Part shown: one piece after another, positions 6,048 through 43,896 of the stretch | Position numbering within the stretch: position 1 is the stretch's first letter | How the letters are laid out: each line of letters starts with the position of its first letter | Assembly: GCA_000091205.1 (NCBI GenBank) | Contig: AP006493.2 | DNA: 64,000 bases | DNA from: Cyanidioschyzon merolae | Taxonomy: Eukaryota | Direction: 5' to 3' (one strand) | Made by a program: the position numbers and the translations under genes | Notes under the pieces: model-generated | Told to the model about the DNA's origin: nothing | The model's database searches: none | Seen by the model: the letters and a program-made list of their open reading frames with translations, nothing else

Positions 6048-6684
6048 TCAAGTCCGGATTTCGCTGATTCCGGCTAGAGTCGATTCAGTGGATGCACACC
6101 GTTGCGATCTACGCTTCGCTTGCATGTTCATCTGGTTTGTACGCAGCGTCGATGAACGGCCTTCGCAGCAGCGACACTCGATTGCGGTCAGGTGTCCCCA
6201 TGAGTCCATTATATATCCTTTTCCCATGGCTGCACTGCAACGCATGAGCGCATGCTTCATAGATCGATGCATGTCCTTGACGGCTACAGAGCGCTGGTCT
6301 TGATGCGCTCCTCCGTTTCCGCGCCCTGTGCCGTACCCTACGATCACGAGCTTGCAGCGGGCAAGGCCCTGGTCGAATACTCTGTCCGCTGCAAGTGCAA
6401 GCACAATCTTCTCGATTTCGATTGAGGATTTCCGCGACGCAATCTTGCTCGTGATGAACTGAGTAGCGGAAGGAAAATCCGGGCTGAAGAACAAGTCCAG
6501 CCAATGTCGACACGTCTACATTCCCTTCGTCAGAGGCATTGACAAAGTCTCCAATGCAAGCGACCGCTCCGATGAATACAGACTGGGTCCAAGACCCTTT
6601 TGCGTGAAACAGGAGTGACGGGAACCTATGGGAGCATTCCCGAAAACAGTAACATGCTGCTGATGTCGAATGCCTTGTCATCAA
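6048..6684 (-). pseudogene. Possible disrupted gene. Two overlapping minus-strand ORFs in different frames, one with a G-x-G-x-G-N-G-G motif faintly like YjeF-N/NAXE.
   Basis: The ORFs 6109..6684 and 6048..6494 lie in different frames. The motif KLVIVGYGTGRGNGGAH is weakly reminiscent of the YjeF_N GPGNNGGDG loop. No other support. Confidence 0.15.
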
Positions 6685-7559
6685 AGGCCACCAGGAGAGG
6701 CGGATTTTTCTTCCGCACAGAGTCGATTACTTGAAGTTACAAAGTCAGTGAACTTTCCGCTTGGGCTTGCGAACAAGTCATCACAAGCCGACGTCAAGAA
6801 ATGTGACTCGTCTACCTAGCGGCACGAAATGCTCCATTCACGAGTTACGTTGAAACGGAAAGATGCAGAAAGGTAAGAACGCTCGATCTGAACACACTTC
6901 AAATAAGCAAAGAAGAAGCTTGCGAGCACTTCAGTGTTCCATTTTAAGCTGACAATACATCTAGCACCCAGAACGTCACTGAGTCCGATCTCCAACCATA
7001 AGTCGCGGTCCGAAAAGCGATGCTGAACGAGGAGCTTGTACGCTGTACGGGGATTCACGCAGCGCGAATGCTTCACGCTCGGGGTTCGGTCCCCGATCCA
7101 GTTGGTTTCAAGGCTCCATCAGCATCCCGTTTCATTCACCGTTCATCATCTAGTGTACGGACGGGCACCCGCATTGCGTCAGCTGCTCACGAGACACCAG
7201 CAACTTCACCATCGCTATCGATAGGCGCAGCGCCCCCGGTGCTGCCTCATGCATCTGAGCGCTGATCCCATCGAGCGTACGGATCCAAAGCTCATGGAAC
7301 GTCGTCACATTCGGAAAAGTGCCACGACCTCCTTCCCTGATGCCGATACCCATTGCGAACCCGACAGGCCCCATTCCATGCATCAATAGAGAAAAACGTT
7401 CTTCGATCAACGAAACATCAACAGTTTACCGTGATCCCGGATTCGAGGCACCAGCGTTGACGCGCTGGCGGGCGCAACGTCGATGCAGTCGCCGTCGCAG
7501 GTGTGCATCGTTACGAAGCGCCTCCTACGGCGACGTCCTGACTGACCCTGCGACCTCAT

Positions 7560-19349: not shown

Positions 19350-19615
19350 TGTCGGTTTCCGTCGATAGCGTCTCCGAGCCTACAAAGTACGACCAAGTTG
19401 GTGACAAAAACTGGAACCCCCGTTACAACAGCGAACCTGTCTCCTTGACCCCAGACAAGTTCCAGACGACGCTTTTGACGGAGACTTGTTGCAGAGCGTA
19501 TAGCCTGGCGGAAACCTTCACCTCCCAGATGAGACACTCTAACGCACAACTTGCGCGAAACAGTTGTCTCTGAGCAGTCTGACTCGTACCATGATGTAGA
19601 TGAGGATTCGAGTAC

Positions 19616-19665
19616 GCGCCGCCACCGCCGCCGCCACCGCCGCCGCCGCCGCCGCCGCCGAAACG
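19616..19665. repeat. (GCC)n / (CCG)n trinucleotide microsatellite of about 16 units.
   Basis: The sequence reads cgccgccaccgccgccgccaccgccgccgccgccgccgccg. It lies about 270 bp upstream of the Sec61 start codon, on the opposite strand. Confidence 0.9.
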
Positions 19666-22600
19666 GTCGGTGCGTCAACGCATCGAGGCGGGGTGACGCT
19701 GGCGCGCCGTGCCGACTCACGTCATCTAGGGGCGATTCGCAAGCATGAGACTGACTCCCTCAGAGGCAGCGTGTGGAGGCGATGAGGTTAACCTGCCCTG
19801 GCGTCCGCGAAGGTCACGTTGTTCTCTCGAACCCCGATGGGATGAGCGATCCCGTACCGCAGAAAAGGGCTAGGTATTTCTCGTTGCAGCAGAGCCGCTT
19901 GATGAGCGGTGAAATCCACAAGCAGGGTGCGCGTCGGACACGGGGAGAGACGGTGAGGGAAACGCTCCCGAGTGTTTTCGGGAGACGCACTGATACGCGA
20001 TCCTTCGATGCTTGAGCAGCGACAGTGAAACCTGGTGGGAATTGCGTTTTCCAGATACAGCATCTGTCAGCAGCATGGCACCTGCAAAGCATGTGTGCGT
20101 TTTCTCTGCTTCTGGTGGAGATCGCATTACGCGACGCGTCCCATACGCCGCACCATTGCCGATGCGTGCTGATGCGTTGACGTGCTGCGTGCCGGCGCGT
20201 GACGCATGTTGACTTTCCCGCCTAACTGAGCGTTCCTCTCAGGAATGCTGCTGTGAAGATGAAGAACGGTGTCTCAGTGATGTCTTGTTCCCTTGATGAT
20301 AGTGGCTCAGACGGGGCGCTGCGGCAGTCGATACGGAGAGGGGCGTCCCCGTCTAGGAACGGCAAGCGTCCGATGACCCGTTTCTGTGCAGTCATAGAAA
20401 GTCATGGAAAATTCGTATCATTTACCAGTTCCCGTGAAAATCGTTGACACTACACAGACACAGCGTTTCATCTTTGCGTAATTGCTAAACTTTCTGTAAC
20501 TGTGCCTTGTTCTCTGCGGCAATTTTTTTAAATTGACAAAACGTTTACATCGGCCAGCGTTCTCCGATTATGCGCGTTTTCCTTTCTTTTTGGGGTTTTT
20601 CAGTGCGCGGCAAAGTATCCATCAAACTCCCTACTTCCAAGTTACATAACCTATGCTTCTTCTGGGATATTCTGGTCATTCCATACGTTCTATCGTGTGT
20701 GCCTACTGCCTGCCGAAAGCGACAGCAATGGCGCCTGTAGCGCCGGTGCGGTCGCTGCACGGAGACAGAACGGCGTTGCCGTACCACACAGAGAGGGCAT
20801 CGGCTCGCGGTTCTGTCCGGGAATGCAATGCCGTGTGTGTCGCGGTCACTGATTCCCTTTCATTGCAAGTCTTTGGTACTTCGGCACAACGCTCACGCTG
20901 AGAATTAGACGATGCTCTGGAAAGCTGACTCGATTCGTAGCCGCTGAACGCTCGGGGCCACGAGAATCTACCAGATGTCAATTGAGACGTTCGCGTTTCA
21001 GTGCGGAACGTGCATGCGCGCAATATCGTGGACGCAATCACACGACAGCAGGCCGCTCGCCCCCGGTGGCGTCGCCAGTCGACGTTCGGTCAGCTTGTCG
21101 TACACCATCGCATACATCAGAATCTGTTTCACGCAATTGTTCTCTATGTGTTTCAGCGCGCATCCGTGCTCGTGATTCGTACATGTAAAATTGAACTCTT
21201 CCATGGGCATTTCACAGTGTTTATTTACGTCTTTCGTGGGACGCTGTCGCTGGAGAACGCTTGCAGCTTGTGCGCAACACAGCAGCACGCGCACCCGCCG
21301 TTGGCTACCACCCATCGCAGCGAACGATTCGTCATTTCCTTTTTTGCAACTCCTTGAACAAGCTGTAGAGTCCAAGCTTCCCGCCTCTGTATGAACAGAA
21401 CTATTGGCGGCGCCAGCGCGGTCTCATGCGCTCTCTGGGGCATCGCATCGTGTGCATAAGTACTCGCGTTTCTGGGACAACTAGCTGAGGCAAGAACGCC
21501 CACAGAAAGCGCGCCAAGAAGCACTCGCCATTTGCCCACACGGTCTCGCTCGTTGGGGCTGGTTTGAAATTTTTCTGGGCATCGTAGCTGTAGATACCCG
21601 AATCACTGACGTGCCGCGGAGACTCGTCCCCGGATTCTAAGAGGCGTCTGTGCACACCTCCGATCCAACGATTAGGCCGAAGTGCATCTTCGGCATCGGA
21701 CATTTGTTGTATTGCCGCTTACAGATTGGATTGAATCGTTTCAATGGAAAGTGGACAAATGGTAGCCCTGCGTCGGTGACTCCTATAAACGGGTGCTCGA
21801 CGAGATGCGTCAAAGCGAGAAAAGGGTGGCGAAGGTATACAACGACTCGTCTGAGAACAGTTTGAAAAACAGCTTCTGTGACCGGGATTCGAACAACTTC
21901 TCCATGCATCCGCGAACGTTAAAATCGAGTTCGACTACAGAGAAGATGCGTTCTACTGGATGAAACCAGTGAGCATAGGCTGACACGAGGAACAGCTCAA
22001 CGCCAACCTCAGTTGCGTAGACTTGTTCCTGAGCCTTTGCGTTGCAGAAAGCAGCTCTGTCTAAGAGCAGGCCAGAAGAATGAGATAAGGAGAAGTCACC
22101 GTGACTGCAGCGATGAGGCATGAGCTGTTGAACGACCGTGTCGATTTGGCGATTTCGAGCCAGCTCCAAGATTCAATTGCCGCGAGTGGTGGTGTCTTTC
22201 GGAATACTCGCTGATCTCTTCTCTCCGAATAAAAATTCGCCCATCGTTGAGTATCCATATGCAGGTCTAGCATTTCTCCTCAACAAAATCTCATCCAGTG
22301 CGACAAACACCTAGCTCTCGTGTAATGAGCGTTCGCATGGCAGTATGGAATCCATTGGTCGTTGGTCAGCGAACATCTATCTGTCAATGAAGCACACGGT
22401 TTTCTTTGACCATCCAATGCTCTTCATCGTCGTTCGAATCAAAGGCACGGAAACTTCACATCCCGTCACGTCTTTGATAGTACTTCATAGGAAACGTATG
22501 GAGTGGAATGGATTACCCAGGAGACAGTCGTGGAGATAGACGATGATGAATTTTGTTCAGGGTGCACTAGGTTCCGGGAAAAGACTACGAATCAGTGATT

Positions 22601-23431
22601 CATGAAAATACTGACCGTCGACAGACTGACCGACAGATTACGCTATGATTTCCATTGCATTGAGGACAACATCAAGTATTTCCGCCATGGTACGCGAATC
22701 TAAAGAAGGTATTCCTTTGATGGAATACAAGCGAGAAAAACAAACAATACCAAAATGGGACTACTGGCGCAAATATTCCAAGATATGCTGCTCTGCCTAG
22801 AACGGTTTCGCGTCACCATTATTCCCGGGGAGGCAATTATTGTTGCACCACGCGTACGCGACAGGCACATCTCGACCTGCTCGTTGACGCTGTCTCATGC
22901 ACGGCTACGGCTCAATGCAAGCCTCGCTGGATCCTGATTAGTGAGTCGGAGCATGTACTGCTTGCGATATGAAGCGTGCTCCAAGGAATTTGGACGACAG
23001 GGTTATAATGTTCGCCATGAACATCTCTATTTTTCCTCGGTTACCTATAAGCAGCGTATACTTTGGCTGATCGCGTCCGCTACTGGTAAACGCACGAAGA
23101 AAAGCCAGCGTTCTTTACGATCGCGGGTGCGCCAGCGCTGTGCGACCCGTGCGCGCGCTCGAGGAACGCGCTGCAGTGCGATGGCTTTGCTTATGCATGT
23201 TGAGGCTGCTCTACCAACGCCACTGTTTCGCACGCTTATACAGCAGAAAGCGGTACTGAAAGTGGAATCGTGCTCTCTAATCAATTCGAGGCTCCACTTT
23301 CAGTGTAATCATACATAGGGAAACGTTCGCTGTATCTTGACTCGTGTCAGGTCGAAGCGTCTGTCCGTTCGAGTTGCGACTCCGGATAACAGCGCGCTAT
23401 AGCCACGCGAGTAGCCGCTGTTTCCGCTGAA

Positions 23432-23950
23432 ATGTCCTCGCTGGCTTTGACACGTCTACAGCAGGAGCGGAAGAACTGGCGCAAAGATCGACCATTTGGT
23501 TTCTCGGCGAAACCTGTCGTCACGGAGAACGGCCAACTGAACCTGCTCCACTGGTCGTGCACGATCCCGGGGCCTGCTGGGACGCCTTACGAAGGCGGAC
23601 TCTTCCGACTCGATATGTTCTTTCCACCGGAATATCCAGGAAAGCCGCCCTTGTGCAAGTTCATTCCACCGCTTTTCCACCCGAACGTGTTCCCCTCTGG
23701 TACAGTTTGTTTGTCGATCCTGAACGAGCAAAAGGGCTGGAGACCTTCGATTTCCGTGAAAGCGATTCTGCTGGGGATTTACGAGTTGCTCAAGGAGCCG
23801 AACCCTGCAGACCCCGCCGCTGAGGAGCCGTACAAGTTATTCGTGCGTAACAGAGCGGGTTTTGATGCCCGAGTCCGTCAAGAGGTGGCTCGCTTGAACG
23901 TTCTCGCGGACGCCCAAGTATGCATAGCAGAGAAGCCCGCTGCCCCGTAA
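23432..23950 (+). CDS. UBC9: SUMO-conjugating enzyme UBC9 (E2).
   Basis: The translation reads [28 protein letters not shown]...[47 protein letters not shown]. It shows the UBC fold with the HPN motif and the catalytic Cys, and the UBC9-specific N-terminus. Confidence 0.92.
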
Positions 23951-24556
23951 ATGCGTGGCTATGTTCACTGCATAGCACGGCACTGTGCAAGCAAATTTGC
24001 TCTACCACAAGCGACATTCGTGCACGTCTATTCTGAATACATCCGCCGATAATTTACGAGACTGACTGCGCTGGTCGTTGTCTTGGGCGCACGCGCTCCA
24101 TAGTCGTAGACTCTAACGGAACGGCATGCTCTGGCATCCGCACGATGTTCGAAGGCGCGAACGTTCAGGTGACGCGACGTTGTTTCATGGGCGTGTCTCT
24201 GGGATAGCCATGGATCGCTTCATATAGCATGACAAGTCGTTGTGTGCTGCTGCCGCGGTGCGACGGGAGAGCAGCCCCATGCAGCGCACGGCAGAGCGAA
24301 CTTCGCATGCGACTCCCCGCCGGGTCATCGGCAGCGCTGGCGCATCCAGAGGTATCTGTTGATATTCCTGGATTTTACAGGAGTAAGCGATTGACGAAAT
24401 AGAGTCTCTTCGCTGATCAATGGAAACGCTCGCGCATCCATGGGCATCTGGTCTGCTTCATCGATTCTTCATTATAGGCATGTCAGACAAGAATGGAACG
24501 GGCAGCTTTGCTGACTCGGGCGAAGAACGTAAAGTAACGGTCTCTTCCGATCGTGA

Positions 24557-25838
24557 TGAATATAGGCCTTTTGTGGGATTTCTCTGCGACGGATAACCTG
24601 TCCGTACGCTAAACCTCCAGCATAAAATATGCGAATATCTGTTCTGCCTTCATCTCCATCTTCGCAAGCAGATGAATACTGATGGCAGCGTTCGTGTCCC
24701 GATTGCGCCGCTTCCCGCCTTTGTCGACGCTATTCATGCAGAGGCGCAAGTTGCGATCCGAGCTTCGCTTGCAATTTTCACTGTCTTTCTGTGCAGCCTC
24801 CAGACGCACTTCGCAGCGTTCATACACGAATGCAGACAGATGTGCCAGCGAGTGTCCACAGCAGCTCCTCGTCTGGCGGTCGGTCTTCCTTGGATGACCG
24901 TTTGAATCATCGCTCGGTACCAGCCATTGGCGGTTGCAGGAGGCATCCTGCGATACGCTGCTCCAAATCCGTGTCCGGTGCGGTGCACGACCAGTGAGGG
25001 TTGCTTCCGACTGGTCTAACCCCGATAAGCACACCGCTCCATTCCACAGAGGATATATGGAACGCCTCGTGCTCCACGGGGAAACGTGCAGCTGGAGCGA
25101 AATCTACGACGGAGAACACTTGGAGAGATTTCGCTTCGCCTCACTCATTCTTGTACAAACCGGTGATGCAGTTTTCACTCGAAGGAATCTCTGCGATGAC
25201 TGAAGACAGAGCCCAGCACTCTTGTCCATGCGAATACAAGCGACGGGAGCCTCTGCGAGCTAATGACGTGAGAGCTACGAGTGTACTGTCGAATTACGAA
25301 CCCTCGTCGACGGCTGCAAAGCCTGGAGCATACGTCGTTCGAGCGGAATCGAGCATCGGACGTGAAGAGTTCAGTGTGGCTTCCGCACACGCTCGGGAAC
25401 AAATCGTCAACGCGCGACATCGCGTACGTTACCTCAGCAGTCCAGCAGCGCGAATAGCTGCGCCCCAGTCCACTCTTGCATCCGAAAAATCGAACACATG
25501 AACCGTGCGCGATGTGCGGACACCTCGCCAACGGAAAGCAGAAGCGTCGAGGCTCGTACCTCTGAGTCACGTAATGATCTCACTTGTTGTACGAACCGTT
25601 GTTTGAGTGCGTCTCGTACGCCTTTGATTCCGATACCGTTGCGAGTTCCAGCGCCGATGCGTCGAAAGAGCCACGCTGATCAAGAGACACCCGAGAATCC
25701 CAAAACGAATCATGAAACCGGAATCCATGAATCCCGCACACGCAACGTCGAATCTATACACCTATGAAAATGGTTCGGAAAATACATCGAAGTCGAGGAA
25801 GAATGGAAGCGGTTCAGTGTTCCATGTTGATTCAACAC
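24557..25838. repeat. Dispersed ~1.28-kb repeat, copy 1. It is ~98-99% identical to the copy at 39386..40667, in direct orientation.
   Basis: The two copies sit at a constant offset of 14,829 bp with no indels. The ORFs 24672..24905, 25001..25501 and 25498..25767 are near-identical to 39501..39734, 39830..40330 and 40327..40596. The flanks diverge. Confidence 0.9.
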
Positions 25839-25930
25839 TTGTATACAAGACCTGAACTGGATCTGAGGTCTTGGACAATCGCTAGGGCTCATCGCCTCGC
25901 CGCGGCCGACGACCGTGCTTCATCCCGCAG

Positions 25931-27073
25931 TTGCTTCTTCTCCTTCGGGAGAGAGGCTTGCCTTCACCGCACAAGTGGCACGTTCTATTTTCGCAGCGCT
26001 CCGCTTGGATCAAGTGCATCGATTTTTCTGTGAGTGTAACGCTCACGTTCATGGCCGGTTTCGTGTACCGCTCACCTGGTGGCGTCGTGGCGTTCGTAAA
26101 CCTCCCAGGGCGAACAGGCGCCGTCGTTCGACCTGTGCCGCGTTGGGGGCTCGCTTCTCGTAGCGCACCCTTTCCACGTGTGCGACTACGATACGCATGC
26201 CACGACACGAGACGCCGAAGACAAGTTCTAGCAGCGACGGAACTGCTGCCCCGCGACAAGGTTCTCAAGACGTTGCAAACCGTTCAAGTTGCCGAGGAGG
26301 TCGCGGTGCGGCTCGTAGACTTGGCGATAAAGGCCACGAAGAACTATCAGGTTGTCGCCACTGACTTCTTTTTGCGTCCAAACGAGCTCCATGGTATGAA
26401 ACAAGCGTTGGAAAGTCTCGCATTTGTAGGTGTGACCTCGTCTGGCGGCTATGCAGCAGCAGAGCGGCAAATTGCAGCTTTTTATCCCAAGGATTTCGCG
26501 CCAACACCTGAACAAGAACAGCAAGTAGCAACTACGCACTGCGAAAGTCAGCTACTGGCTCTTGAACTCGCCGGAAACTTCATTTTCGATCGAGCGAGCC
26601 ACAGCGACTTTCTCGGTGCCCTGATAGGATGCTCTGGACTTCGCCGAGAGCGCTTCGGTGACATCATCATTCTTGGCGATCGAGGTGCCCAGGTGGTAGT
26701 CCTCAAGAATGATGCCGAAACCATCCGGAGCTCCGTCAAGATGGTGCGGTCTGTAACGGTTCGTACTCGGCAACTGGGAAGCCTTGCGGAGCTAGAGGTG
26801 CAACCACCGCGAACCAAGACGCTTACGAGTGTGGAGGCCTCGCTGCGTCTGGATGCAGTTGGAAGTGCGGGCTTTGGAATGAGCCGCACGAAGATGGTAG
26901 AAATGATCAAAAACGGGGATGTGCACGTGAACTGGGTCCCTGTCAAGTCTGCGTCCCGGAATGTCGCTGAAGGTGACACGATCACCGCACGAGGGCGTGG
27001 TCGCCTACAAGTCATCTCCATTGCCATTACCTCACGAGGTCGCTTCCGTGTGGAATTAAAACGCTACATATGA
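25931..27073 (+). CDS. S4 RNA-binding domain protein, YlmH-like (plastid/cyanobacterial type). The N-terminal part of the ORF may be a transit peptide, or the true start may be internal.
   Basis: The C-terminal S4 domain reads MSRTKMVEMIKNGDVHVNWVPVKSASRNVAEGDTITARGRGRLQVISI. It is preceded by a YlmH-like region (FFLRPNELHGMKQALESLAFVGVTSSGGYAAAERQIAAFYP). Confidence 0.7.
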   Translation: MLLLLRERGLPSPHKWHVLFSQRSAWIKCIDFSVSVTLTFMAGFVYRSPGGVVAFVNLPGRTGAVVRPVPRWGLASRSAPFPRVRLRYACHDTRRRRQVLAATELLPRDKVLKTLQTVQVAEEVAVRLVDLAIKATKNYQVVATDFFLRPNELHGMKQALESLAFVGVTSSGGYAAAERQIAAFYPKDFAPTPEQEQQVATTHCESQLLALELAGNFIFDRASHSDFLGALIGCSGLRRERFGDIIILGDRGAQVVVLKNDAETIRSSVKMVRSVTVRTRQLGSLAELEVQPPRTKTLTSVEASLRLDAVGSAGFGMSRTKMVEMIKNGDVHVNWVPVKSASRNVAEGDTITARGRGRLQVISIAITSRGRFRVELKRYI

Positions 27074-31623: not shown

Positions 31624-32599
31624 AGCGAAAAGAGCGCACCCGGAACGCTCAACAGCACCACGCCCACTCCACCACGTCTCGCGCTGTGTCCAGTCGGAAG
31701 GTGCTTATTCTGGCAGATGCCGCGGATTTCAGCACTGCTGATCTCTGGCGAGGCGGGAGTAACGCGCGCGCTGTTGCCAGCTGCCGCCAGCAGCACCATC
31801 GAGGCGCGATCTTTCAGTGTATGCCCGGCGATTGACAAACGCCGCGCCGTTTTCTTTCGATGACAAAACGTTTAGTTGGACCATGGATCCCTGATTGCGG
31901 GGTGGATAATTGTTTTCGGGAACTCGTCGACCACGATGCACCCTACATTCAATTTCCATTACTTGTATTTCCTTTTTCCGATGTATTCGTGGTTTTGTAG
32001 GTTGTATTGTTCCAAGAGTGTCTGCTTTGAGCAGCAGCGATGGCAGCTATACCGTTGGTGCGGATGCAGCACGGAGACAGAACGGCGTTGCCATACCACT
32101 GCGGGCGTCGGCTCGAGGCGTGGTTTAATCGACACGGGGTCGGAGTACATGACAAGTCTGGGAGCCAGGAAGCTGCACATACAGGCGTGCTATCTGCGGG
32201 TGCGCGAAGCGATTTGCTGGGAGATAACTGCAGCATGGGCTGCGCCCGGACGCAGCCTAACTGCTCCGAGTCCCAGAATAAACAGCATTGCGGATGCGTT
32301 GCTCAGATATCACTACAATGCCTGCCACTGGGGGAAGCATGAAGCATTAGTCTGGGAGACTCGTCCGGCACGCTGGACCTTACTCTATTACGGAAACTTT
32401 TCCCCTTTTAACGTTGATCGTAGCGAAGAAAAGAAATTTTTATATCATTGCTTGGTAATGGTGGGTCTCTGCTCTTTGTTCTATGTAGCGCGCTCGATAC
32501 GCGCATCTCCATATCTGGCAGGTATGGAACACGACGTGCATCTCGCTGCTAAAAGAGGAACGAGATCCTGACCGTTCGTGTGTAGCTCTAGCTTCCAAG

Positions 32600-35050
32600 T
32601 TGTACGGGGGTTCAAGTCATAGCTGATTATATTCTTTCGATTCAATTGTGTTTCAACCCTCAAGCAAGTATGTTCAAGTGATTTTCCACGGTTTGCATCG
32701 GACGCGTATGAAATGAGATCGTTTTCAAAACAAAAAAGGAAGGAAATGGGAATTGAAGCGGAGGATCCCGGAGGCGCATTGTCACCGGCTGGCGGAAAAA
32801 AAACGAAAAACAGAGCCCAACGTAGAGACATAAGACAAGACGAAGAAGCAGAAGGCAGAGGCACGACGCCAAAGGCCGCAAGAAAGACGACAGTACGACG
32901 AGATGGTGGTGAAAGCCGGTCTTCTTAAACATACCAAGGATCCGTACAAAAAAAGTTGCAAGAGGGCATCGGAAACCGTGTCGCAACCTACTCCACCAGT
33001 GTTTTTAAGGCTTCTCCAGGAATTATGCATTTCATGAGGGAGATGTATCGCGACGTGACGGACATCAACACAGTTGAGGTTCCCGAAGAATCGTTCGACA
33101 CGACCCTTATTCGCCACCTGACGCTTAGCATAGGGGAAACGTCGAGGAGAAATGAGCGAGTAAATGACCTCCACGAATATCACGCCGAATACCGCTTCAA
33201 CGATACTCGATGCAATGGTGACGCGGATATTTACGAATACAGTGCGATGACGTACCTCACGAGTCTGGAGAACAATATGATCATGATCTTGGAACGTTTC
33301 AAGTTATGCTCCTTCTTTGCGCTGTGTCCGGGCCATTCTCGCAAAGGGATATGGAGCATCATCAATCGCGCCACGAATGATTGTAGGAATCAACAGGAGA
33401 TCGAATTCGTTGACAAGAAGGCATCACGTAGGAGTAGGAATGAAGCTTCTGTGATCCGCGCGGCCATTCAAGAGCACCGTGCGGTCTTCGGGCTGCTCAA
33501 TCCGGAAGAAAAGTTATCAGAGATGAAAAAGAGGATGTTATCCACTCATTCTACGGTATTTCGTCTACCTGAACCGAGAACTCGAACGCAAGGCGGAGAT
33601 GGAGCTGGGTATGCGGAAAAATGCAGAGTCGTAGAAACGAAAGGCTGCGCTTCTGGGGAAGCGCTTCGATTTCGTTACGATATGCAACAGCAAGTCACAT
33701 TTTGTGGCAATCAACTCCAGCGTCCTTCATGGCATCATGAGCGAGATCTGTCCGGAGTTCAATGTCAGGAAGACAGAGATCATCGGCGTAAAACCGGGAC
33801 ACGTACAGGAAGAATATCTTCGAGTTCAAACGTCTCGAAATGAGCAAGCAAAAAGTATTTACTGGGATGATCAGAACCGATGGAGTATCCATATGTGCTC
33901 AGTATCCGCGCCTGAGGACGGATCGTCCTATTGTGTCTTTGATATCGCCCTCGGCGAAGCGTGAAGAAAACAACCACGGGGATCCTGTGACGCAGGAGGT
34001 GCAGGAGAACGACTTTGTCGTTGGCGCTGACCCCGGCAACACGAATATCGTCACAATCGCAGTACCCAAGAGTGCGGAAGATGGCATTGACGGCATCTTG
34101 CGTCAGAAAAACATGCATCTTTTAAAGTTCTCGATAGCGAGATACTATCGGGAATCGGGAATAATGAAAGCGAGGAAACAAAATAAGAAATGAAATTCAG
34201 GAATGAAGGCGCACCTGGAAGCGATCAGCAAAGTGACTTGCCGTGGAGCGAGCTTTCGATCCGTCCTGGAGTTCATGGAAGCTCGCGTTGCTCGTGACGA
34301 GTAGCTTTGAAAAGAGTATACAAAGCCCAGGTGGGCTCGTCAGTGTACGAACCTGCACTCTGGGAAACAGCGCGCATTCGCCGAATTGTTCACTGAGTTG
34401 AGCGCCCTCGAGGACCACTAGAGTCAGCGGCTCGTACTAGCATACCGTGCAGGGCGCTGGGCGTCCGAAAAGGGGACATATAAGCCCCATCGACAAGAGC
34501 GTACAGGAAGTTCGCTCGCAGTTTTTTCACGATACCGATACATGAGTTCCGAATATCGTATGTGCACCACGAGCTAATGTGCACACTTCAAAGGGTCGAG
34601 ATGGAAATCTCCCAGCGGATCCCGGAGGATATAGAACAGTATGGAGCGCTGGAGGAACAGCAAATGGAAAGAAGGGCGCAAGTTCGAGGACTCCTTGCAT
34701 TGGTGAGTACAATGAACGCGAAGAAACAGATGGAGTTCGTAAACCGGGACTTGAGCGCCGCCATCAATATCAGGAGACGTACCGTGCTGGACAAGAGACC
34801 CGCGGCGCTGACGCAAGCCAACCTTGTAGGGCAGCCCCTCAAGGTCGAATCACATAAAGACAAGTTGAAACCAGCAGTAGGTGGCCGGTCCAAAACGACT
34901 GAGAGGCGTCTGCACGTGGGCGTAGGGATATCCACGCTATCGGCGTTATGTAGGTACGCATGTATGCCTGGTTTGCCGGCGGCATCGATGCTCTGGTAAT
35001 CTTCCAGGAACGCAGCTTCTAACCAAATGCCCCCTGGTGCGAACATGCCA
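32600..35050 (+). mobile_element. AT-richer ~2.4-kb island containing a degraded TnpB/Fanzor-like (OMEGA-type RuvC nuclease) element.
   Basis: Base composition is visibly lower in GC than the surrounding ~58% GC DNA. ORF fragments in all three plus-strand frames carry RuvC-I-like and RuvC-III-like motifs (see the pseudogene entry at 32956..34999). I could not discern terminal repeats. Confidence 0.5.
32956..34999 (+). pseudogene. Fragmented TnpB/Fanzor-like RNA-guided-endonuclease homolog. Pieces lie in frames 1 (32956..33843), 2 (33704..33964), 0 (33840..34193) and 2 (34562..34999), with about 290 bp of the gap (34194..34480) holding no long ORF in any frame and no zinc finger.
   Basis: Frame 0 reads [24 protein letters not shown], which fits the RuvC-I G-x-D-x-G-x-x-N...SDG motif. 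It is followed by a basic helix ([30 protein letters not shown]). Frame 2 at the 3' end reads FVNRDLSAAINIRRR, which fits the RuvC-III motif D-x-N-A-A-x-N-I. A WED-like sequence [15 protein letters not shown] lies just upstream in another frame. At least two frameshifts and stop codons are therefore needed to join the pieces. The expected CxxC...CxxC zinc finger before RuvC-III is absent. Confidence 0.5.
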
Positions 35051-35549
35051 GCGATAAGCGCGGGAGAGGGTTTACATCCTCGCGATACGCACATACATCC
35101 CATGCGTTTGGGTCTAGTCTTCGCCTCAAAAACAGATGCTTGATCGATACAATGCATCCCCGCGTATTGCGCCTCCAGCTGACACCCTCCGGGGACTGGG
35201 CGCTCGGACGATGCGTTTCTCGGGGCATCATCGCGAGAAATGCGCATCATTGCTGGACGCTGCGTCCGATCTGGTAATGCATGCGTGCCGACGCACCTGT
35301 TTACCCGTCGTCGCATGCGTGCACGCATGCGCCTCGCGGGAAAGAATGACACGCACGCAAGTGCACGCATCAACCCGAGCGTCTCGATGCGTTGTCTCTC
35401 TCTGGAATGACGCAGCGTCGTGTAGCGGCCCTGATGACATCGGCGCAGGGTACGCTGCTTGCACGCTACAGATATAGCAGACTACGCACAGAGACTGAAC
35501 AGTAGTCTTTACGAAGCAGACGAACGTACGATCCTCTGCGCCCCGCCGC

Positions 35550-38294
35550 ATGTCCCGTCTGGTCACAGGTAGTTCTCGCTCGTTGCGCACGCTTTCGAAG
35601 AGGAGCGGTACGTTCGCTTCACGCTCGACTCGGTTGACGTCAACCAACACGACCCGATCGCTTGTGCTTGCTGGAGTGCTCATCCAGGACAAGGGAAGGC
35701 GTGTCGGTGTGGCTGCATGCTTCGTCGATGCCTGTCGGGTCGAGCTGCGTCAGTTCACCGACAACTACGCATACGACCGCCTGGCTGTGGGCCTGGAGGT
35801 GCTGGACCCGTCAGAACTGGTGGTGCCTGATGGAATAGCGCTTTCCATTCTGGCGCCGATACTCCAGCGTGATCAAGGGGTCGCGACTACCAGCATATCG
35901 GGCGACGGCAGCGGTACAGTGCATGCGGACTCTCGTCGCGCTGTGCCGATCCCTCGACGATTATTCAACGAGCAAATCGGTCTGGAACTTATGGAACGAT
36001 TCGCCGTGGACGCAGCCGCGATACGTCTAAGCGCGTCACAGCCCGAGCGTGACCTCGCAACGGCAGCATGTGCCGCAGTGTTGCAGTATCTCGAGCACCG
36101 CGGAGAGTTGAGTTTTCGACCAAGGGCCGTTCAATTCGTGTTCACGAATTGTGAGGACGCGCTTTTCATGGACTCATGCACCGTGCATTGCTTGGAACTG
36201 GTGGAGCGCGGCGACTCGGAAAGCGGCACCGACGCAGACATATCTCTACAGCGTACGCTGCGTTTCACGCAGACCGCCGAGGGCGCGCGCGCCCTGCGAC
36301 GCGCGATCCTCGAACCACCCGCGAATCGGACCGTCATCGAGGAGCGCCTGGATGCCCTAGATTTCATGCTCAGCAATGATGCGATTTACTACGAGCTTAA
36401 AGAGGCGCTTCGACAGACGCCCTCGGTCGAAAGAACGATCGCGCAGATTTTCCATATCTATCCGCGAGCACGGGAATCGTTGGGCATGCAGGCGCAGTCC
36501 CATATTCGGGATGCGCGCGTTCATGGGGCGCAATCCATCGACCATGTCGTCGACTTCCGCTTTGTGCGTAGCGTCTGGCAACTGAGACGGGCACTCGACA
36601 GCCTCTTTCGCATACGCGAAGCGCTCGATGTGTTCCTGGAAGAGCGCTCGACCCAGACCGGTACAAGGACCTTACCAGTACTTCTGGAATGGTGCCGGAA
36701 CGTTGCCCGTCTCACTGCACTGACCGATTTGCACCATGAGCTGGGGCGCTGTCTCGCCTCTACGACAGAAGTAGAGCTCGAGCTCGGTTCAACCGAGCGA
36801 AATCGCTTGCATATTGCTTTTGCCCTGCGCGCTGGCGCCAATCCATTGCTCGACGCTGCGCGTCGTGCGCTGTCCGACACCGTATCGAGCGTACATCACC
36901 TCGCTGAGGCCACCAAGGGTCAGTTGCGATGCCCTCGTCTGCATGTCGCGTACAGCACGCTGCGCGGATACCACTTTGTTTTGCCTTTGCGAGACGCTGT
37001 GCAGCAATCGCTTACTCGCACGGAGATCGGCGGCGTTCTCTTACGGTATCCGGTACGTTCAGGAAAAAAACTCCTGTTCACAACCGATGCGCTGATTCGT
37101 TTGAACATGCAGTACCAGGAGACGCTGGCAGAAATCTGGCATTTGAGCAGCAAAGAACTTTCCAAGCTGGCGGAAATGGCAACGAGCACCGCTTCAGCGC
37201 ACGCGATCCACGAGTTTTGTGATTGCGTGGCTGCACTGGACGTCACCCTCGCGCTGGCGACATGTATTCGACGAGCGCGCGACCGCAGTTCGTGTCCGTG
37301 GGTGCGACCACAATTCCCCGACACCAATGTCATGGCCATGAAGGATGGACGCCATTTGCTCCTGTCCCATCTGTACGAGGCACAGCGGCGCGATCCACCA
37401 AGACCGAACGATGTCTATATAGATGACGCTCATAACGTGATGCTTCTCTTCGGTGCAAACGCGTCGGGCAAGTCCGTGTACATGAGACAGACAGCGCTCA
37501 TTGTGGTGCTCGCCCAGATGGGGTGCTTCGTACCAGCTGCTTTCGCCTCCATGCCTGTCTACAGCGTGCTTCTGGTGCGGAGTCGCTCTGATGACGCTCT
37601 GGAACATAATCTCTCCTCGTTTGCCATGGAGATGCGGGAAATCACAAGCGCGCTTCACTACATTGACGGAGAGGCGCTCTCCAGCGCATTAAATCCGTTA
37701 GACCAGGAGCGCCGCATTCACAAACTTGTCTTATTCGATGAAGTCGGACGCTCGACCGGCTCGCTTGATGGCAAATCCATCGCCTGGGCGATGCTCGAGT
37801 ACCTTTCTGATACGACCGCACATATCATCTTTGCCACACACTTCAGCGAGCTTGCGCGGACGCAAACGTACCTTCCTAACGTCCATGTGATGCACCTACA
37901 GTCACGAGTGGAGAATGGCACGCTCTATCATGATTACAAGCTTGTAGAGGGTGCGCCAGCGTCTTCTCGTTACGGGGCCGAAGTTGCTGCCCAAGCCGGA
38001 CTCCCCAGCGCTGTGGTCACACGCGCGTTGCAGTTTCGCGGAGTGTTCAGCGGAGATGCCTCCACCTCAACAACGACACCTACAGCAACAGATACTGGAA
38101 ATCAAGGATTCCTGAGTATCGACGACGAAACTTGGGCCCATTGCAGATGGTATACCAAAGCCAACACCCTACTCCAGCGACTTGTCATGCTCTCGTACGT
38201 GGCCACTTCACCTGAAGACCAGTGCGCAGGCGTAGCCGAACTGGCTTCGGTGTTCGCGGACTTGTTCGAGACGCCAACAGCGGTTACTCGCTAG
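35550..38294 (+). CDS. MSH4: MutS homolog, most similar to the meiotic MSH4 subtype. It lacks the N-terminal mismatch-binding domain.
   Basis: The MutS ATPase Walker A region reads LLFGANASGKSVYMRQTALIVVLAQMGCFVPA. Other shared segments are SSFAMEMREI, LFDEVGRSTGSLDGKSIAWAMLEY, IFATHFSELA and YHDYKLVEGAPASSRYGAEVAAQAGLP. These resemble the MSH4 sequences STFMKEMKEI and TLFATHFLEL. The MutS-family call is strong. The MSH4-versus-MSH5 subtype is moderate. Confidence 0.8.
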   Translation: MSRLVTGSSRSLRTLSKRSGTFASRSTRLTSTNTTRSLVLAGVLIQDKGRRVGVAACFVDACRVELRQFTDNYAYDRLAVGLEVLDPSELVVPDGIALSILAPILQRDQGVATTSISGDGSGTVHADSRRAVPIPRRLFNEQIGLELMERFAVDAAAIRLSASQPERDLATAACAAVLQYLEHRGELSFRPRAVQFVFTNCEDALFMDSCTVHCLELVERGDSESGTDADISLQRTLRFTQTAEGARALRRAILEPPANRTVIEERLDALDFMLSNDAIYYELKEALRQTPSVERTIAQIFHIYPRARESLGMQAQSHIRDARVHGAQSIDHVVDFRFVRSVWQLRRALDSLFRIREALDVFLEERSTQTGTRTLPVLLEWCRNVARLTALTDLHHELGRCLASTTEVELELGSTERNRLHIAFALRAGANPLLDAARRALSDTVSSVHHLAEATKGQLRCPRLHVAYSTLRGYHFVLPLRDAVQQSLTRTEIGGVLLRYPVRSGKKLLFTTDALIRLNMQYQETLAEIWHLSSKELSKLAEMATSTASAHAIHEFCDCVAALDVTLALATCIRRARDRSSCPWVRPQFPDTNVMAMKDGRHLLLSHLYEAQRRDPPRPNDVYIDDAHNVMLLFGANASGKSVYMRQTALIVVLAQMGCFVPAAFASMPVYSVLLVRSRSDDALEHNLSSFAMEMREITSALHYIDGEALSSALNPLDQERRIHKLVLFDEVGRSTGSLDGKSIAWAMLEYLSDTTAHIIFATHFSELARTQTYLPNVHVMHLQSRVENGTLYHDYKLVEGAPASSRYGAEVAAQAGLPSAVVTRALQFRGVFSGDASTSTTTPTATDTGNQGFLSIDDETWAHCRWYTKANTLLQRLVMLSYVATSPEDQCAGVAELASVFADLFETPTAVTR

Positions 38295-38695
38295 CGCTCA
38301 CTCCCTTGTTGACTTGCTGTGTGGTGCTTGGCGCTATCACCTTTGTCCTCGAGCGGTAATTCAAAGCTTCGCTTTAACGCTTCCTCTAACGTACGTTGCG
38401 CAGTGTACACTTTGGCCTGTAAGTATAGAGATCCACCGTTCTTTGGATCGTTCAAGGTATAAAGTCGCCTCAGTCGCTCCGCTATGTGCTCTGGTGAGGT
38501 TCCTGGTGTGGCACCTACTATTCGGTACGCCTCCTCGACGGTCATGCGCCCACGTCGTACTGCGTTCGCTGCAGCAGACTGTGCCGCACCCGTGGACTGT
38601 GCGTTTGCAAGCGCTTGTCGGTATGCTTCGGCCAAGCCTCTGAGAAGAAACTGTCCACCATATATAATAAGCTGTGCAACTATTTTCGATGCCAT
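38291..38695 (-). CDS. PAM16: Mitochondrial import inner-membrane translocase subunit TIM16 / PAM16 (Magmas-like, J-like domain).
   Basis: The translation reads MASKIVAQLIIYGGQFLLRGLAEAYRQALANAQSTGAAQ...MTVEEAYRIVGATP...GGSLYLQAKVYTAQRTLEE. It is collinear with PAM16 (MAAKLLAQIIVLGSQVFGRAFAEAYRQA...GSFYLQSKV). Confidence 0.85.
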   Translation of the reverse strand: MASKIVAQLIIYGGQFLLRGLAEAYRQALANAQSTGAAQSAAANAVRRGRMTVEEAYRIVGATPGTSPEHIAERLRRLYTLNDPKNGGSLYLQAKVYTAQRTLEEALKRSFELPLEDKGDSAKHHTASQQGSER

Positions 38696-38850: not shown

Positions 38851-39332
38851 AAGACGTTGTTGTCGGGAGCCGACAACCCGCAGGTCAGCGGAACATCGTT
38901 TAACGGCAATCATGAGGGGATGGAGTGGAGCGGGTTGTTGTCGGGAGCCGACAACCCGCAGGTCAGCGGAACATCGCTTAGCGGCAATCATGAGGGAATG
39001 GAGTGGAGAGACGTTGTTGTCGGGAGCCGACAACCCGCAGGTCAGCGGAACATCGTTTAACGGCAATCATGAGGGGATGGAGTGGAGCGGGTTGTTGTCG
39101 GGAGCCGACAACCCGCAGGTCAGCGGAACATCGCTTAGCGGCAATCATGAGGGAATGGAGTGGAGAGACGTTGTTGTCGGGAGCCGACAACCCGCAGGTC
39201 AGCGGAACATCGTTTAACGGCAATCATGAGGGGATGGAGTGGAGAGACGTTGTTGTCGGGAGCCGACAACCCGCAGGTCAGCGGAACATCGTTTAACGGC
39301 AATCATGAGGGGATGGAGTGGAGCGGGTTGTT
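38851..39332. repeat. Minisatellite of ~6 tandem copies of a 78/79-bp unit. Two unit variants alternate, giving a ~157-bp higher-order repeat. Each unit contains a perfect 8-bp-stem, 3-nt-loop inverted repeat.
   Basis: The unit cgacaacccgcaggtcagcgg recurs at 38871, 38949, 39028, 39106, 39185 and 39264. Each unit contains gttgtcgg-gag-ccgacaac. Variant A reads ...atcgtttaacggcaatcatgaggggatggagtggagcgggttg, and variant B reads ...atcgcttagcggcaatcatgagggaatggagtggagagacgttg. The small ORFs across it on both strands are repeat artefacts. Confidence 0.95.
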
Positions 39333-39385
39333 TTCAGATTAATGAGGTTTACGTTGTATATAGATTGGGCTGCACTCTAACGCTA

Positions 39386-40667
39386 TCAATATAGGCCTTT
39401 TGTGGGATTTCTCTGCGACGGATAACCTGTCCGTACGCTAAACCTCCAGCATAAAATATGCGGATATCTGTTCTGCCTTCATCTCCATCTTCGCAAGCAG
39501 ATGAATACTGATGGCAGCGTTCGTGTCCCGATTGCGCCGCTTCCCGCCTTTGTCGACGCTATTCATGCAGAGGCGCAAGTTGCGATCCGAGCTTCGCTTG
39601 CAATTTTCACTGTCTTTCTATGCAGCCTCCAGACGCACTTCGCAACGTTCATGCACGAATGCAGACAGGTGTGCCAGCGAGTGTCCACAGCAGCTCCTCG
39701 TCTGGCGGTCGCTCTTCCTTGGATGACCGTTTGAATCATCGCTCGGTACCAGCCATTGGCGGTTGCAGGAGGCATCCTGCGATACGCTGCTCCAAATCCG
39801 TGTCCGGTGCGGTGCACGACCAGTGAGGGTTGCTTCCGACTGGTCTAACCCCGATAAGCACACCGCTCCATTCCACAGAGGATATATGGAACGCCTCGTG
39901 CTCCACGGGGAAACGTGCAGCTGGAGCGAAATCTACGACGGAGAACACTTGGAGAGATTTCGCTTCGCCTAACTCATTCTTGCACAAACCGGTGATGCAG
40001 TTTTCACTCGAAGGAATCTCTGCGATGACTGAAGACAGAGCCCAGCACTCTTGTCCATGCGAATACAAGCGACGGGAGCCTCTGCGAGCTAATCACGTGA
40101 GAGCTACGAGTGTACTGTCGAATTACGAACCCTCGTCGACGACTGCAACGCCTGGAGCATACGTCGTTCGAGCGGAATCGAGCATCGGACGTGAAGAGTT
40201 CAGTGTGGCTTCCGCACACGCTCGGGAACAAATCGTCAACGCGCGACATCGCGTACGTTACCTCAGCAGTCCAGCAGCGCGAATAGCTGCGCCCCAGTCC
40301 ACTCTTGCATCCGAAAAATCGAACACATGAACCGTGCGCGATGTGCGGACACCTCGCCAACGGAAAGCAGAAGCGTCGAGGCTCGTACCTCTGAGTCGCG
40401 TAATGATCTCACTTGTTGTACGAACCGTTGTTTGAGCGCGTCGCGTACGCCTTTGATTCCGATACCGTTGCGAGTTCCAGCGCCGATGCGTCGAAAGAGC
40501 CACGCTGATCAAGAGACACCCGAGAATCCCAAAACGAATCATGAAACCGGAATCCATGAATCCCGCACACGCAACGTCGAATCTATACACCTATGAAAAT
40601 GGTTCGGAAAATACATCGAAGTCGAGGAAGAATGGAAGCGGTTCAGTGTTCCATGTTGATTCAACAT
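39386..40667. repeat. Dispersed ~1.28-kb repeat, copy 2. It directly abuts the 3' end of the minisatellite.
   Basis: It is near-identical to 24557..25838, with the same ORFs carrying a few substitutions. It begins about 55 bp after the last minisatellite unit. Confidence 0.9.
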
Positions 40668-42186: not shown

Positions 42187-43896
42187 TTGCGCTGCATCGT
42201 TTCCAATGCGCCCTCGCCGTCGAGAGGCTGGGCGAATGCACCCGCGATGACATGCCTTTGGATTGCGATCTGTCCACTGGCCCGCATCCGATTTGTCGTT
42301 CAACTTGCTTCGTGTCCCGTTACTGAAGTATTTACGGGAAACCGGAACGCGTGGGGCTGCATAGCTCTCTACGATCTTTCAAGAAGTTATTTAGATTTCT
42401 CTGTCCAACCGTCCTGCAAGAAACGACGAGCCGTCGGTCTTGTTTTGCTTGGGGTGGGTTCTACGAACTCTGGCGCTACCCTCGGTGCCTTGGTCCAGCC
42501 TCGAGGCCCGCAAAACCGTTGTCCTTCCCGTAAAAACATATCGTGCGACGCTTTTGTCGCGACTCTGGGAGAACGGCGCGGGTCCGGGCTTTGCCAGACT
42601 GAGACTAACGCCTCGACAGACGCGACGAGCTTGAGAAGCCACGACAAAGTCCACGCTGCTCCTTCAAGAAACTCGGAGGGAAATACGCTTGCTTACTTCA
42701 TGGACAACAGAAATCTGTATTCGAGTGCTCTGGGGACGCGAATTTCGATTGAGAGCAAGGGTTCAGGCACCAACAGAGAACAGCCAGTGATGATCATGGC
42801 TGGAAACCCCCTTCGAGTACATGTCATAGATGATGATAGAATACCAACAGCTTCGATGCCGGGCGGTTTTTCCGCGCACGACGCGCCCCCGGGCCGAGGA
42901 CTCGCGTCGCACTCGACGGAACCACAGGCCTCGAGAAGCGTGTTTGCTGAAGGCAAATCCATCGTCACACCCAGCGAACGATATCGGAACGGGCATCAGG
43001 GGTCACATGTAGCGACTGGTATCCATACGGGTGACACGTTCCGCAGTGCGACGGCTCCACTCAGCAGGGATGGTGCCGGGCTGCCTGCCACCCGACCATC
43101 GTTCCCCATGCAACAGTCGTGGAAGGCCGGACCGCTCCGGCCCGCCGTTGCCGTTCACGATGGAGGAGACGTTTTCGAGTGGACTCAGCCAGATGCCCGA
43201 CAATCAATCAGATCTAATCAGATATCGCCGGTTTCCACCAGTGCGGAGTTGTCACCACCTATGACGAGAGTACCGACGCCGATTCCGCCCCCAGATCATA
43301 TTGAATGGAAACCGCCTTCGATGGCGACGGGCTCGCCGGTGACAACGTCGTCGTCACCTTCAGAACGTGCGCTCGATCGCTCACGGGGGCAACAGCGGGT
43401 TGTGCCGCACTCAGGCTGGGTCTCATTGGAGAGCGCGCTTCGAGCATCAATAGTTCCTGAACATCTACGCCTTCCGCGACTGCTCACCGAACAGCCGGTG
43501 CGAGCGGATGCAACCCGTACCCGATTCCTTGTACGCCTGCGTGTACCGTCAGAACTCGACGCCTTTAAGATCGCATCTATTTGGCGGAAACGGCAGGAAA
43601 CACGGTTCTGCCTCAACTGTGGAGTCAATGACGCGCCGAGCTGGCATCGGATGGAAGACGACGAGCTTGGTCTCATCGAAATCGGGGAAGGCTGGCTCAA
43701 CTCTCCGACGCTTTTGGCTCAAATCGCGGGTAGCCCAGGCAGAAGATTGCAAAGGGCGCAGTGCAATGCCTGCTGGAAATACAGCTCGCGTCACGGCGGT
43801 GAACAGAGACCACCGCGCCTGTGGAAAGGCTCAGAATTGGATCGCCTCCTCGGCCTCAGGGTCATGGAAGCCCAGTTGCGACTGTTTCAGCGTTAA
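42187..43896 (+). CDS. Hypothetical Ser/Pro-rich protein with a C-terminal GATA-like zinc finger that has an unusually long inter-cysteine loop. The true start may be internal.
   Basis: A 569-codon open frame is unlikely by chance even at this GC content. The C-terminus reads CLNCGVNDAPSWHRMEDDELG...(~50 aa)...CNACWKY. Compare the GATA consensus C-x-N-C-x4-T/P-x-W-R...C-N-A-C-G-L-Y, whose loop is 17-20 aa. Confidence 0.45.
   Translation: MRCIVSNAPSPSRGWANAPAMTCLWIAICPLARIRFVVQLASCPVTEVFTGNRNAWGCIALYDLSRSYLDFSVQPSCKKRRAVGLVLLGVGSTNSGATLGALVQPRGPQNRCPSRKNISCDAFVATLGERRGSGLCQTETNASTDATSLRSHDKVHAAPSRNSEGNTLAYFMDNRNLYSSALGTRISIESKGSGTNREQPVMIMAGNPLRVHVIDDDRIPTASMPGGFSAHDAPPGRGLASHSTEPQASRSVFAEGKSIVTPSERYRNGHQGSHVATGIHTGDTFRSATAPLSRDGAGLPATRPSFPMQQSWKAGPLRPAVAVHDGGDVFEWTQPDARQSIRSNQISPVSTSAELSPPMTRVPTPIPPPDHIEWKPPSMATGSPVTTSSSPSERALDRSRGQQRVVPHSGWVSLESALRASIVPEHLRLPRLLTEQPVRADATRTRFLVRLRVPSELDAFKIASIWRKRQETRFCLNCGVNDAPSWHRMEDDELGLIEIGEGWLNSPTLLAQIAGSPGRRLQRAQCNACWKYSSRHGGEQRPPRLWKGSELDRLLGLRVMEAQLRLFQR

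Follow-up and report, generated by a model that had tools for sequence, protein, structure and literature searches.

Transposition, whether cut-and-paste or copy-and-paste, moves the ends of an element along with it, and transposon ends can in turn give rise to tandem arrays or minisatellites; classical gene conversion needs a pre-existing element at the recipient site. From the red alga Cyanidioschyzon merolae, Nozaki et al. (2007) described a "253-copy, 3.2-kb novel interspersed repetitive element" that carries a truncated ORF with weak similarity to WSV486 of WSSV (PMC1955436), and homologous recombination in this organism has been documented to be highly efficient, including pop-out between engineered direct repeats (PMC8504449). 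A 2024 paper on dispersed repeats (PMC11050394) provides genome-wide statistics only and nothing specific to the ~1.37-kb repeat family (R family) treated here, which, within the literature searched, seems to be undescribed.

The pair of near-identical direct repeats compared here with these systems (R1 and R2) is located in a stretch of 64,000 nt (referred to as the window) of chromosome 11 of C. merolae 10D, the genome of which is finished; eight proteins encoded in the window were residue-identical to C. merolae 10D proteins in the range BAM80554–BAM80568. Judged from the comparisons below, the pair is an ordinary feature: two copies, probably evolving in concert, of a piece of an old transposon-like repeat that does not code. 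It is neither a new gene or RNA nor an active element. The two copies have the following extents:

24556–25837, plus strand: R1 block (copy 1), 1,282 nt, 98.83% identity to R2, no indels
39385–40666, plus strand: R2 block (copy 2), 1,282 nt, 98.83% identity to R1, no indels

In the offset comparison and by BLASTN, the two blocks differed by 15 mismatches over 1,282 nt, with no gaps and a constant offset of 14,829; one of the mismatches (24558) lies two bases inside the left edge of R1. The number of identical bases per 50 nt at this offset was 46–50 across 24550–25837, versus 8–19 (chance level) just outside. Since identity collapses to chance at both edges, the ends are sharp and the pair does not belong to a larger segmental duplication without defined ends, part of the finding that a preliminary description of this DNA had named as contradicting its own reading; the junctions have 2 nt in common (AT) at the left and none at the right. 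The 1.28-kb duplicate is a real, low-copy, sharply bounded direct pair, and the earlier statement of an indel-free pair with ~98–99% identity was borne out (98.8%); the offset of 14,829 likewise stood, whereas the coordinates first given for copy 1 (24557..25838) were displaced by one base.

The long ORFs of the window represent eukaryotic housekeeping genes (including Snf7, RPC82, MSH4, Sec61 and Ubc9); in view of these genes, the missing tRNAs and the exact matches to 10D proteins, a bacterial reading was rejected. Sec61 and Ubc9 (SUMO E2, 23432–23950) precede R1; a PSII-S4/YlmH-like gene (ATG at 26051), Snf7, ALG5, a 3.9-kb unannotated stretch, MSH4 and Tim16/Pam16 (38291–38695, minus strand) follow; beyond Tim16 come a minisatellite and R2, with a GATA-zinc-finger-like gene (42187–43896), NifU and Dbr1 to the right. 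Both copies are thus intergenic, and no CDS is annotated in R1 or R2 of strain 10D, as the flanking accession numbers are consecutive (BAM80559/BAM80560 at R1). A tRNA search and an Rfam search at gathering threshold gave no matches in the whole window. In Cyanidiococcus yangmingshanensis and a second relative the gene order around both loci is as in C. merolae; the Ubc9–YlmH spacer, in contrast, comprises ~0.5 kb in both relatives versus 2.2 kb in C. merolae and the Tim16–GATA distance 3.1 kb versus 4.7 kb, i.e. the syntenic spacers of both relatives are shorter by 1.5–1.7 kb. The family model (see below) found no matches in ~60 kb of syntenic loci of both relatives. The nearest other lineages are 67–76% identical to C. 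merolae at protein level, and a search for empty-site alleles or intermediate relatives, including within C. merolae populations, found none.

The first traces of a wider family were a weak third BLASTN match (6023–6198) and, in a six-frame comparison, colinear weak matches to the repeat at 6000–6920 and reversed ones at 45447–46328. An nhmmer search of the 64-kb window with a single-sequence query (R1 plus flanks) revealed six copies, R1, R2 and four old ones, which are intergenic and present in both orientations; upon iteration the member set was stable, with nothing added. The old members are:

5835–7030, plus strand: c5863; nhmmer 6003–6990, E = 4.7e-50, model positions ~1/33–1208; 54–58% identical to R
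45290–46481, minus strand: c46481; nhmmer 46481–45769, E = 1.2e-32, and 45733–45305, E = 4.2e-22; internal deletion of ~170 nt
55171–55974, plus strand: c55229; nhmmer 55226–55959, E = 8.8e-23, model positions 1–802
5–482, minus strand: c482; nhmmer 465–34, E = 1.6e-9; cut by the window start

These copies are 54–59% identical to R and among themselves. The mismatch periodicity among them was weak and inconsistent, and a majority consensus of the family restored no long ORF. Pfam searches with the six-frame family consensus and 46 ORF fragments of five members resulted in chance-level singletons only; no remnant of a reverse transcriptase or transposase was found in the family by these searches.

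The window also contains a second family of ~3–3.4 kb with four copies (2175–5535, 20819–22849, 49120–52115, 59783–61505). By nhmmer the R family had no similarity to it, and it was rejected as an autonomous partner, no common termini being seen. The R family is comparable to the element of Nozaki et al. (2007; PMC1955436) in that it occurs in the same genome and is dispersed, old and intergenic; in contrast to the 3.2-kb element, it is ~1.37 kb long and has no ORF. An identity of the two was dismissed because of the length, the missing ORF and the lack of nhmmer similarity to the ~3-kb family of the window, which, by its size, fits the published element better (PMC1955436).

Comparison of the family members showed that the R1 sequence extends beyond the block shared with R2:

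24473–24555, plus strand: left end of the R1 element (83 nt), contiguous with the R1 block and outside the R1/R2 identity
25838–25850, plus strand: putative right end of the R1 element (13 nt, ending in CTTGTATA), absent at R2; a tentative assignment, read from the sequence in analogy to the TIR of c46481

The old copies align from nhmmer query position 171–174 onwards, which corresponds to window positions 24470–24473. In Smith-Waterman shuffle tests the left segment of R1 was similar to c55229 (p = 0.0005) and c46481 (p = 0.03), and the left termini of four members line up in register (TAYAC.CATG...ATGGAAC). The inverted motif GTTCCAT is found at the right ends, and TACACWCATG as a terminus motif showed no enrichment in the window. 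The right end was recognised in R1, R2 and c45305, the likeness of the R2 right flank to the family terminus being restricted to ~7 nt. The copy at 45290–46481 possesses a perfect 10-nt TIR (ACACATGCGA/TCGCATGTGT; 45291–45300 and 46469–46478) exactly at the ends of homology, for which a chance probability of 3e-4 was obtained by simulation; it places the right terminus of the family ~12–16 nt past the block-equivalent end. At positions 25842–25850, R1 repeats its own left end TATAGGCATGT in inverted, degenerate form, a sequence that R2 does not have. The inverted repeats of R1 and c55229 are degenerate only, the subterminal ATGGAAC/GTTCCAT included, and outside c46481 degenerate repeats of ~30 nt are seen; the proposed TIR classification of the family is thus composed of one perfect case and degenerate ones. 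Read in this way, R1 is a complete family element of ~1.37 kb, the right terminus of which is probably position 25850, as deduced from the degenerate inverted repeat. The R1/R2 block ends inside this element on the left and probably on the right, too.

To the left of the R2 block, the equivalent 83 nt are made up of the final minisatellite unit and a 49-nt spacer and are 38–42% identical to the other members; they were not matched by a left-end HMM built without R2, and the comparison with the R1 left end was not significant (Smith-Waterman shuffle p = 0.15). An older family element beneath R2, as a candidate explanation, found no support in these two tests.

The R family resembles non-autonomous class II TIR transposons or long MITEs: its copies are dispersed in both orientations, intergenic and devoid of an ORF, have their termini in common (TAYAC.CATG...), include one perfect 10-nt TIR, and are absent from the syntenic sites of the relatives. 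Based on the TIR, the shared ends and this absence, it has the character of a non-autonomous TIR-type element that is old and lineage-specific, a classification that is incomplete: in contrast to TIR transposons and MITEs, neither an autonomous partner nor a transposase relic was found, and no clear target-site duplication was recognised among the few and old copies, the termini of which start or end with TA (c46481 has GCGTG on both sides). With 1.37 kb the family is also long for a MITE, and the R1/R2 block, lacking the termini, represents a piece of an element, not one that has transposed. An affiliation with the Helitrons was rejected, as the ends (TATAGG.../...TTCAACA(CTTGTATA)) do not conform to 5'-TC...CTRR-3' and no Helitron signature is present; a non-LTR retroposon or SINE was likewise rejected, there being no tail, no target-site duplication, no reverse transcriptase match and no tRNA- or Rfam-related head. 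Of the earlier suggestion of a non-autonomous mobile element, the membership in a mobile-element-like family is supported (nhmmer, TIR); the block itself, with both termini missing, does not qualify as the mobile unit.

The left side of R2 is distinguished by a tandem array:

38852–39335, no strand assigned: minisatellite, 79 nt x 6; TRF 38852–39323/39332, period 79, 6.0 copies, 93% matches

The gap between the array and R2 is 49–61 nt and TRF detected no tandem array beside R1, in agreement with the initial observation that an array ends ~55 bp before copy 2 and is missing next to copy 1. Each 79-nt unit holds a perfect 8-bp hairpin (GTTGTCGG-GAG-CCGACAAC); in short-read contigs the array is collapsed to ~1–3 units. 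The position adjoining one end of R2 is reminiscent of arrays derived from transposon ends; unlike in these, the similarity between the 79-nt unit and the R family end is not significant, and a derivation from that end found no support (left-end HMM and shuffle tests not significant). At the left end of R2, the minisatellite plausibly acts as a fragile site or has come about as a by-product. As a separate observation, the same (left) end is tandemly duplicated in c55229 (two units of 57 nt, 55171–55228 and 55229–55285, both matched by the left-end HMM), a hint toward a link between array and element.

A metagenome scan with peptide patterns of the block retrieved six contigs, each ~99% identical to one of the two loci, and exact-protein look-ups added 13 contigs that mapped to the R1/R2 loci only; indeed, every block-bearing metagenome, Logan or ENA contig recovered falls on one or the other of the two. 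In its young version, the repeat thus seems to exist in two copies, both of them present in all sampled populations. All four junctions (left flank–R, R–YlmH side, array–R and R–GATA side) were found in independent contigs with ~99% identity to the window. Many short-read contigs end 113–243 nt inside the repeat, others join the left flank via R to the right flank of copy 2 (A-R-D contigs, including ones of 74 kb and 43 kb), and two 14.5-kb loops with 121-nt end overlaps were obtained (M-R-M contigs). These contig stops and both contig forms are to be expected when a two-in, two-out repeat is assembled through a de Bruijn graph.

Among the contigs anchored in unique sequence, position 24558 represents a fixed difference between the paralogues (G in at least 17 copy-1-anchored contigs; C in five array-anchored contigs and in R2 of the window). 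In contrast to this outermost site, 24628 (T/C) and 24670–71 (AG/CA) are polymorphic in copy-1-anchored and array-anchored copies alike. The phased variants are located within 72–115 nt of the unique flanks, a span over which 99–141-nt k-mers or 150-nt reads are expected to give the correct phase; the phasing is nonetheless taken from short-read metagenome assemblies, which may be chimeric, as the A-R-D and M-R-M contigs show that assemblers mix the copies. The paralogues within 10D differ at 14–15 sites, the orthologues at, e.g., 17 (R1 of the window versus L004), although the duplication is older than the sampled strains, all of which carry both copies. Polymorphisms shared near the flanks, together with a paralogue divergence that does not exceed the orthologue divergence, are expected under recurrent non-allelic gene conversion and suggest that conversion between R1 and R2 is ongoing, assembly chimerism being possible. 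If so, the small number of point differences, originally taken as the mark of a recent event, is an unsafe measure of age.

In sum of this evidence, we consider it rather probable, if far from certain, that R1 and R2 are the inner 1,282 nt of one old non-coding TIR-type family member, copied or homogenised by recombination between nearby direct repeats. R2 would have arisen by copying of the homologous-recombination type (ectopic gene conversion or templated double-strand-break repair), and R1 and R2, as direct repeats 14.8 kb apart, are probably still kept similar by such copying. At the site of R2, either an older element may have been present (classical conversion, with edges since eroded) or the fragment may have been patched into a break by the minisatellite. 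A crossover between the copies would excise the 13.5-kb block of housekeeping genes including Tim16; with such products presumably counter-selected owing to the loss of essential genes, only the non-crossover conversion products would persist. The pair has much in common with ectopic gene conversion and concerted evolution as in P-element gap repair and low-copy repeats: a near-identical block within diverged or unrelated flanks, two copies close to each other on the same chromosome and in the same orientation, paralogues no more divergent than orthologues, apparently shared polymorphisms, and a recombination-proficient host. In contrast to proven cases, the conversion between R1 and R2 is deduced from metagenome contigs, and homology outside the block at R2 is not significant.

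The last point also speaks in favor of a one-off non-homologous duplication, i.e. a template switch during replication or a templated insertion into a break close to the fragile minisatellite, with no prior element and no later exchange, in which case the 1.2% divergence would date the event. Flanks of R2 that are not significantly family-like, a hairpin-bearing array 49 nt from the R2 junction, and a junction identity of merely 2 nt at the left and none at the right would all fit such an event. However, the paralogues share polymorphisms near their unique flanks, and the 14–15 paralogue sites within 10D are not above the ~17 orthologue sites in strains that are all two-copy. A single duplication of this kind is therefore unlikely.

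Recent transposition, in which the block, as a still-mobile non-autonomous element or a 5'-truncated copy-and-paste copy, jumped 14.8 kb and the minisatellite either formed at the insertion site or acted as a target for it, is quite unlikely. It had been one of the two origins first proposed, and it draws on the dispersed transposon-like family with common termini, on both sites being longer than in the related genera, on a right block edge within ~13 nt of the family right end, and on the tandemly duplicated left end of c55229. Yet the block lacks the family left 83 nt and probably the right ~13 nt, i.e. the inverted termini that a TIR element needs, and hence cannot be a transposition unit. 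Furthermore, neither a target-site duplication nor the ends of a Helitron were seen, the block ends lack a poly(A) or simple-repeat tail, the family has no reverse transcriptase or transposase remnant, and neither other copies ending at the block edges nor a third young copy were detected in the window and the recovered contigs. The perfect 10-nt TIR in an old copy speaks against a retroposon-type family. Recombinational copying is accordingly favored as most likely over transposition of the block and over a new gene.

A different reading concerns the contigs: the A-R-D and circular-looking M-R-M forms from several hot-spring metagenomes might be genuine and represent products of pop-out or deletion, or circles outside the chromosome, in natural C. 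merolae populations. Given that a two-in, two-out repeat is expected to yield these forms and that a true deletion would cost the genome Tim16 and further housekeeping genes, we regard this as very unlikely; if it were true, R1 and R2 would be recombination-active direct repeats around a 13.5-kb housekeeping-gene block. In a weaker version, the ~1.37-kb family may be an undescribed, possibly still active TIR transposon family that densely occupies a genome reputed to be nearly transposon-free.

A functional duplicated gene, coding for a novel small protein or constituting a two-copy long non-coding RNA locus, is highly improbable. The protein candidate was the following frame:

25001–25501 (also 39830–40330), plus strand: 166-codon ORF, judged non-coding

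Among the ORFs that have a start codon and span at least 100 codons, no other occupies the same coordinates in R1 and R2, and as stated at the outset this frame is intact in both; it is not the sole intact frame, however, since several other stop-to-stop frames of 100–134 codons are likewise open in R1 and R2. The 166-aa product had no homologue but itself among 5.8 billion protein clusters and no Pfam match (a 102-aa ORF gave chance-level matches only), and exact look-ups of ten ORFs of the repeat returned automatic metagenome gene calls only. No purifying signal was seen between the copies: all five differences of R1 and R2 inside the frame (5/5) are non-synonymous, and copy differences pooled with the variants of ~20 related contigs gave a ratio of 4 synonymous to 12 non-synonymous changes that is indistinguishable from that of the other five frames (compare Sec61 with 8:0, Ubc9 with 4:0 and MSH4 with 10:5 among the neighboring genes). 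In a codon-usage log-likelihood scan trained on the genes of the window, genes reached 8–11 units per 300 nt, the repeat at most ~4.5 with no persistent frame. The small-protein gene that had been considered is thus not supported by homology, codon usage, substitution pattern or annotation.

Regarding an RNA, other repeats of C. merolae are transcribed (PMC1955436), and the region 24973–25172 (plus strand) folds unusually stably (z = -4.15), in contrast to otherwise unremarkable sliding 200-nt folds. Its hairpins, though, are not conserved in the older family copies, and Rfam 15 gave no match over 24300–26000 even at E<=1, which together with the polymorphism speaks against the duplicated non-coding RNA locus initially envisaged: the block is the most polymorphic stretch of the neighborhood, with 4.0% segregating sites versus 0.4–1.1% in the flanking genes and 1.2–3.3% in other spacers. 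The block encodes neither a protein nor a recognisable RNA and evolves like a neutral spacer.

That the pair is an artefact of assembly, or belongs to a larger segmental duplication, has a negligible probability: short-read assemblies do mis-join at the repeat, but the window matches the finished 10D chromosome, the four junction types were found independently in other samples, and identity is at chance level directly outside the block.

With the candidate novel gene or RNA removed, the pair as such matters little beyond genome bookkeeping. For metagenome assembly it is a caution, as the repeat yields false "circular" contigs of 14.5 kb and false 14.8-kb deletions in contigs of up to 74 kb. 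With regard to the organism, the "simplest" eukaryotic genome is padded here with old uncharacterised repeats, six ~1.37-kb and four ~3-kb copies within 64 kb, compared with a published transposon content of 0.7%. If the shared polymorphisms are real, R1 and R2 would represent a small natural example of concerted evolution in an alga prized for its efficient homologous recombination.

Several metagenome contigs containing the R block, the sequence shared by the two near-identical 1,282-nt direct copies R1 and R2, had one of two unusual configurations: some closed into "circular-looking" loops of 14.5 kb whose ends overlapped by 121 nt, and others (contigs of up to 74 kb) displayed an apparent deletion of 14.8 kb, with Ubc9-R fused straight to the GATA-like gene.

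Contigs with loops or apparent deletions: L008; Ga0078972_1012370 (L006/L013); L026, L027, L007, L009

Both configurations are expected as assembly-graph artefacts of a two-copy repeat; a real pop-out of the intervening segment is a less likely origin. Short-read contigs presented the minisatellite (38852-39335) collapsed to approximately 1-3 units. The array begins 157 nt upstream of the start codon of Tim16, and a perfect 8-bp hairpin (GTTGTCGG-GAG-CCGACAAC) is present in each of its 79-nt units. Tim16 (-) itself is convergent with MSH4 (+), the genes overlapping by 4 nt at their stop codons (38291-38294), and the two also abut in related genera. At the left terminus of c55229, an old member of the R family, a 57-nt tandem duplication of two units (55171-55285) offers a parallel to this array, which adjoins R2 on the left. 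A further structural feature, a very stable predicted local RNA/DNA fold at 24973-25172 (+) (z=-4.15), owes its stability to hairpins, among them AGCGAAATCT...AGATTTCGCT; these hairpins are confined to R1/R2 and absent as a conserved feature from the old family copies.

A second old repeat family, unrelated to the R family, was detected by nhmmer (E-values from 1e-31 to 1e-138) in four copies of approximately 2-3.4 kb each:

2175-5535, + strand, second-family copy
20819-22849, + strand, second-family copy
49120-52115, - strand, second-family copy
59783-61505, - strand, second-family copy

The sizes agree with that of the "253-copy, 3.2-kb novel interspersed element" of C. merolae (Nozaki 2007, PMC1955436); the density of four copies per 64 kb is far above the expectation from 253 per genome.

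Comparison with Cyanidiococcus and a second relative of the same gene order revealed enlarged spacers. The one between ALG5 and MSH4 (31650-35549) measures 3.9 kb versus approximately 0.72 kb in both relatives; its ORFs of 231, 295, 117 and 261 aa had no Pfam match and no CDS in the 10D annotation, and the left end of the stretch (31845-32119) is 78% identical to 20517-20811. The Sec61-Ubc9 spacer (19380-23431) comprises 4.05 kb versus approximately 1.7 kb in both relatives, a surplus largely accounted for by a second-family copy of approximately 2 kb. In consequence, several spacer expansions in the window are attributed to lineage-specific repeats.
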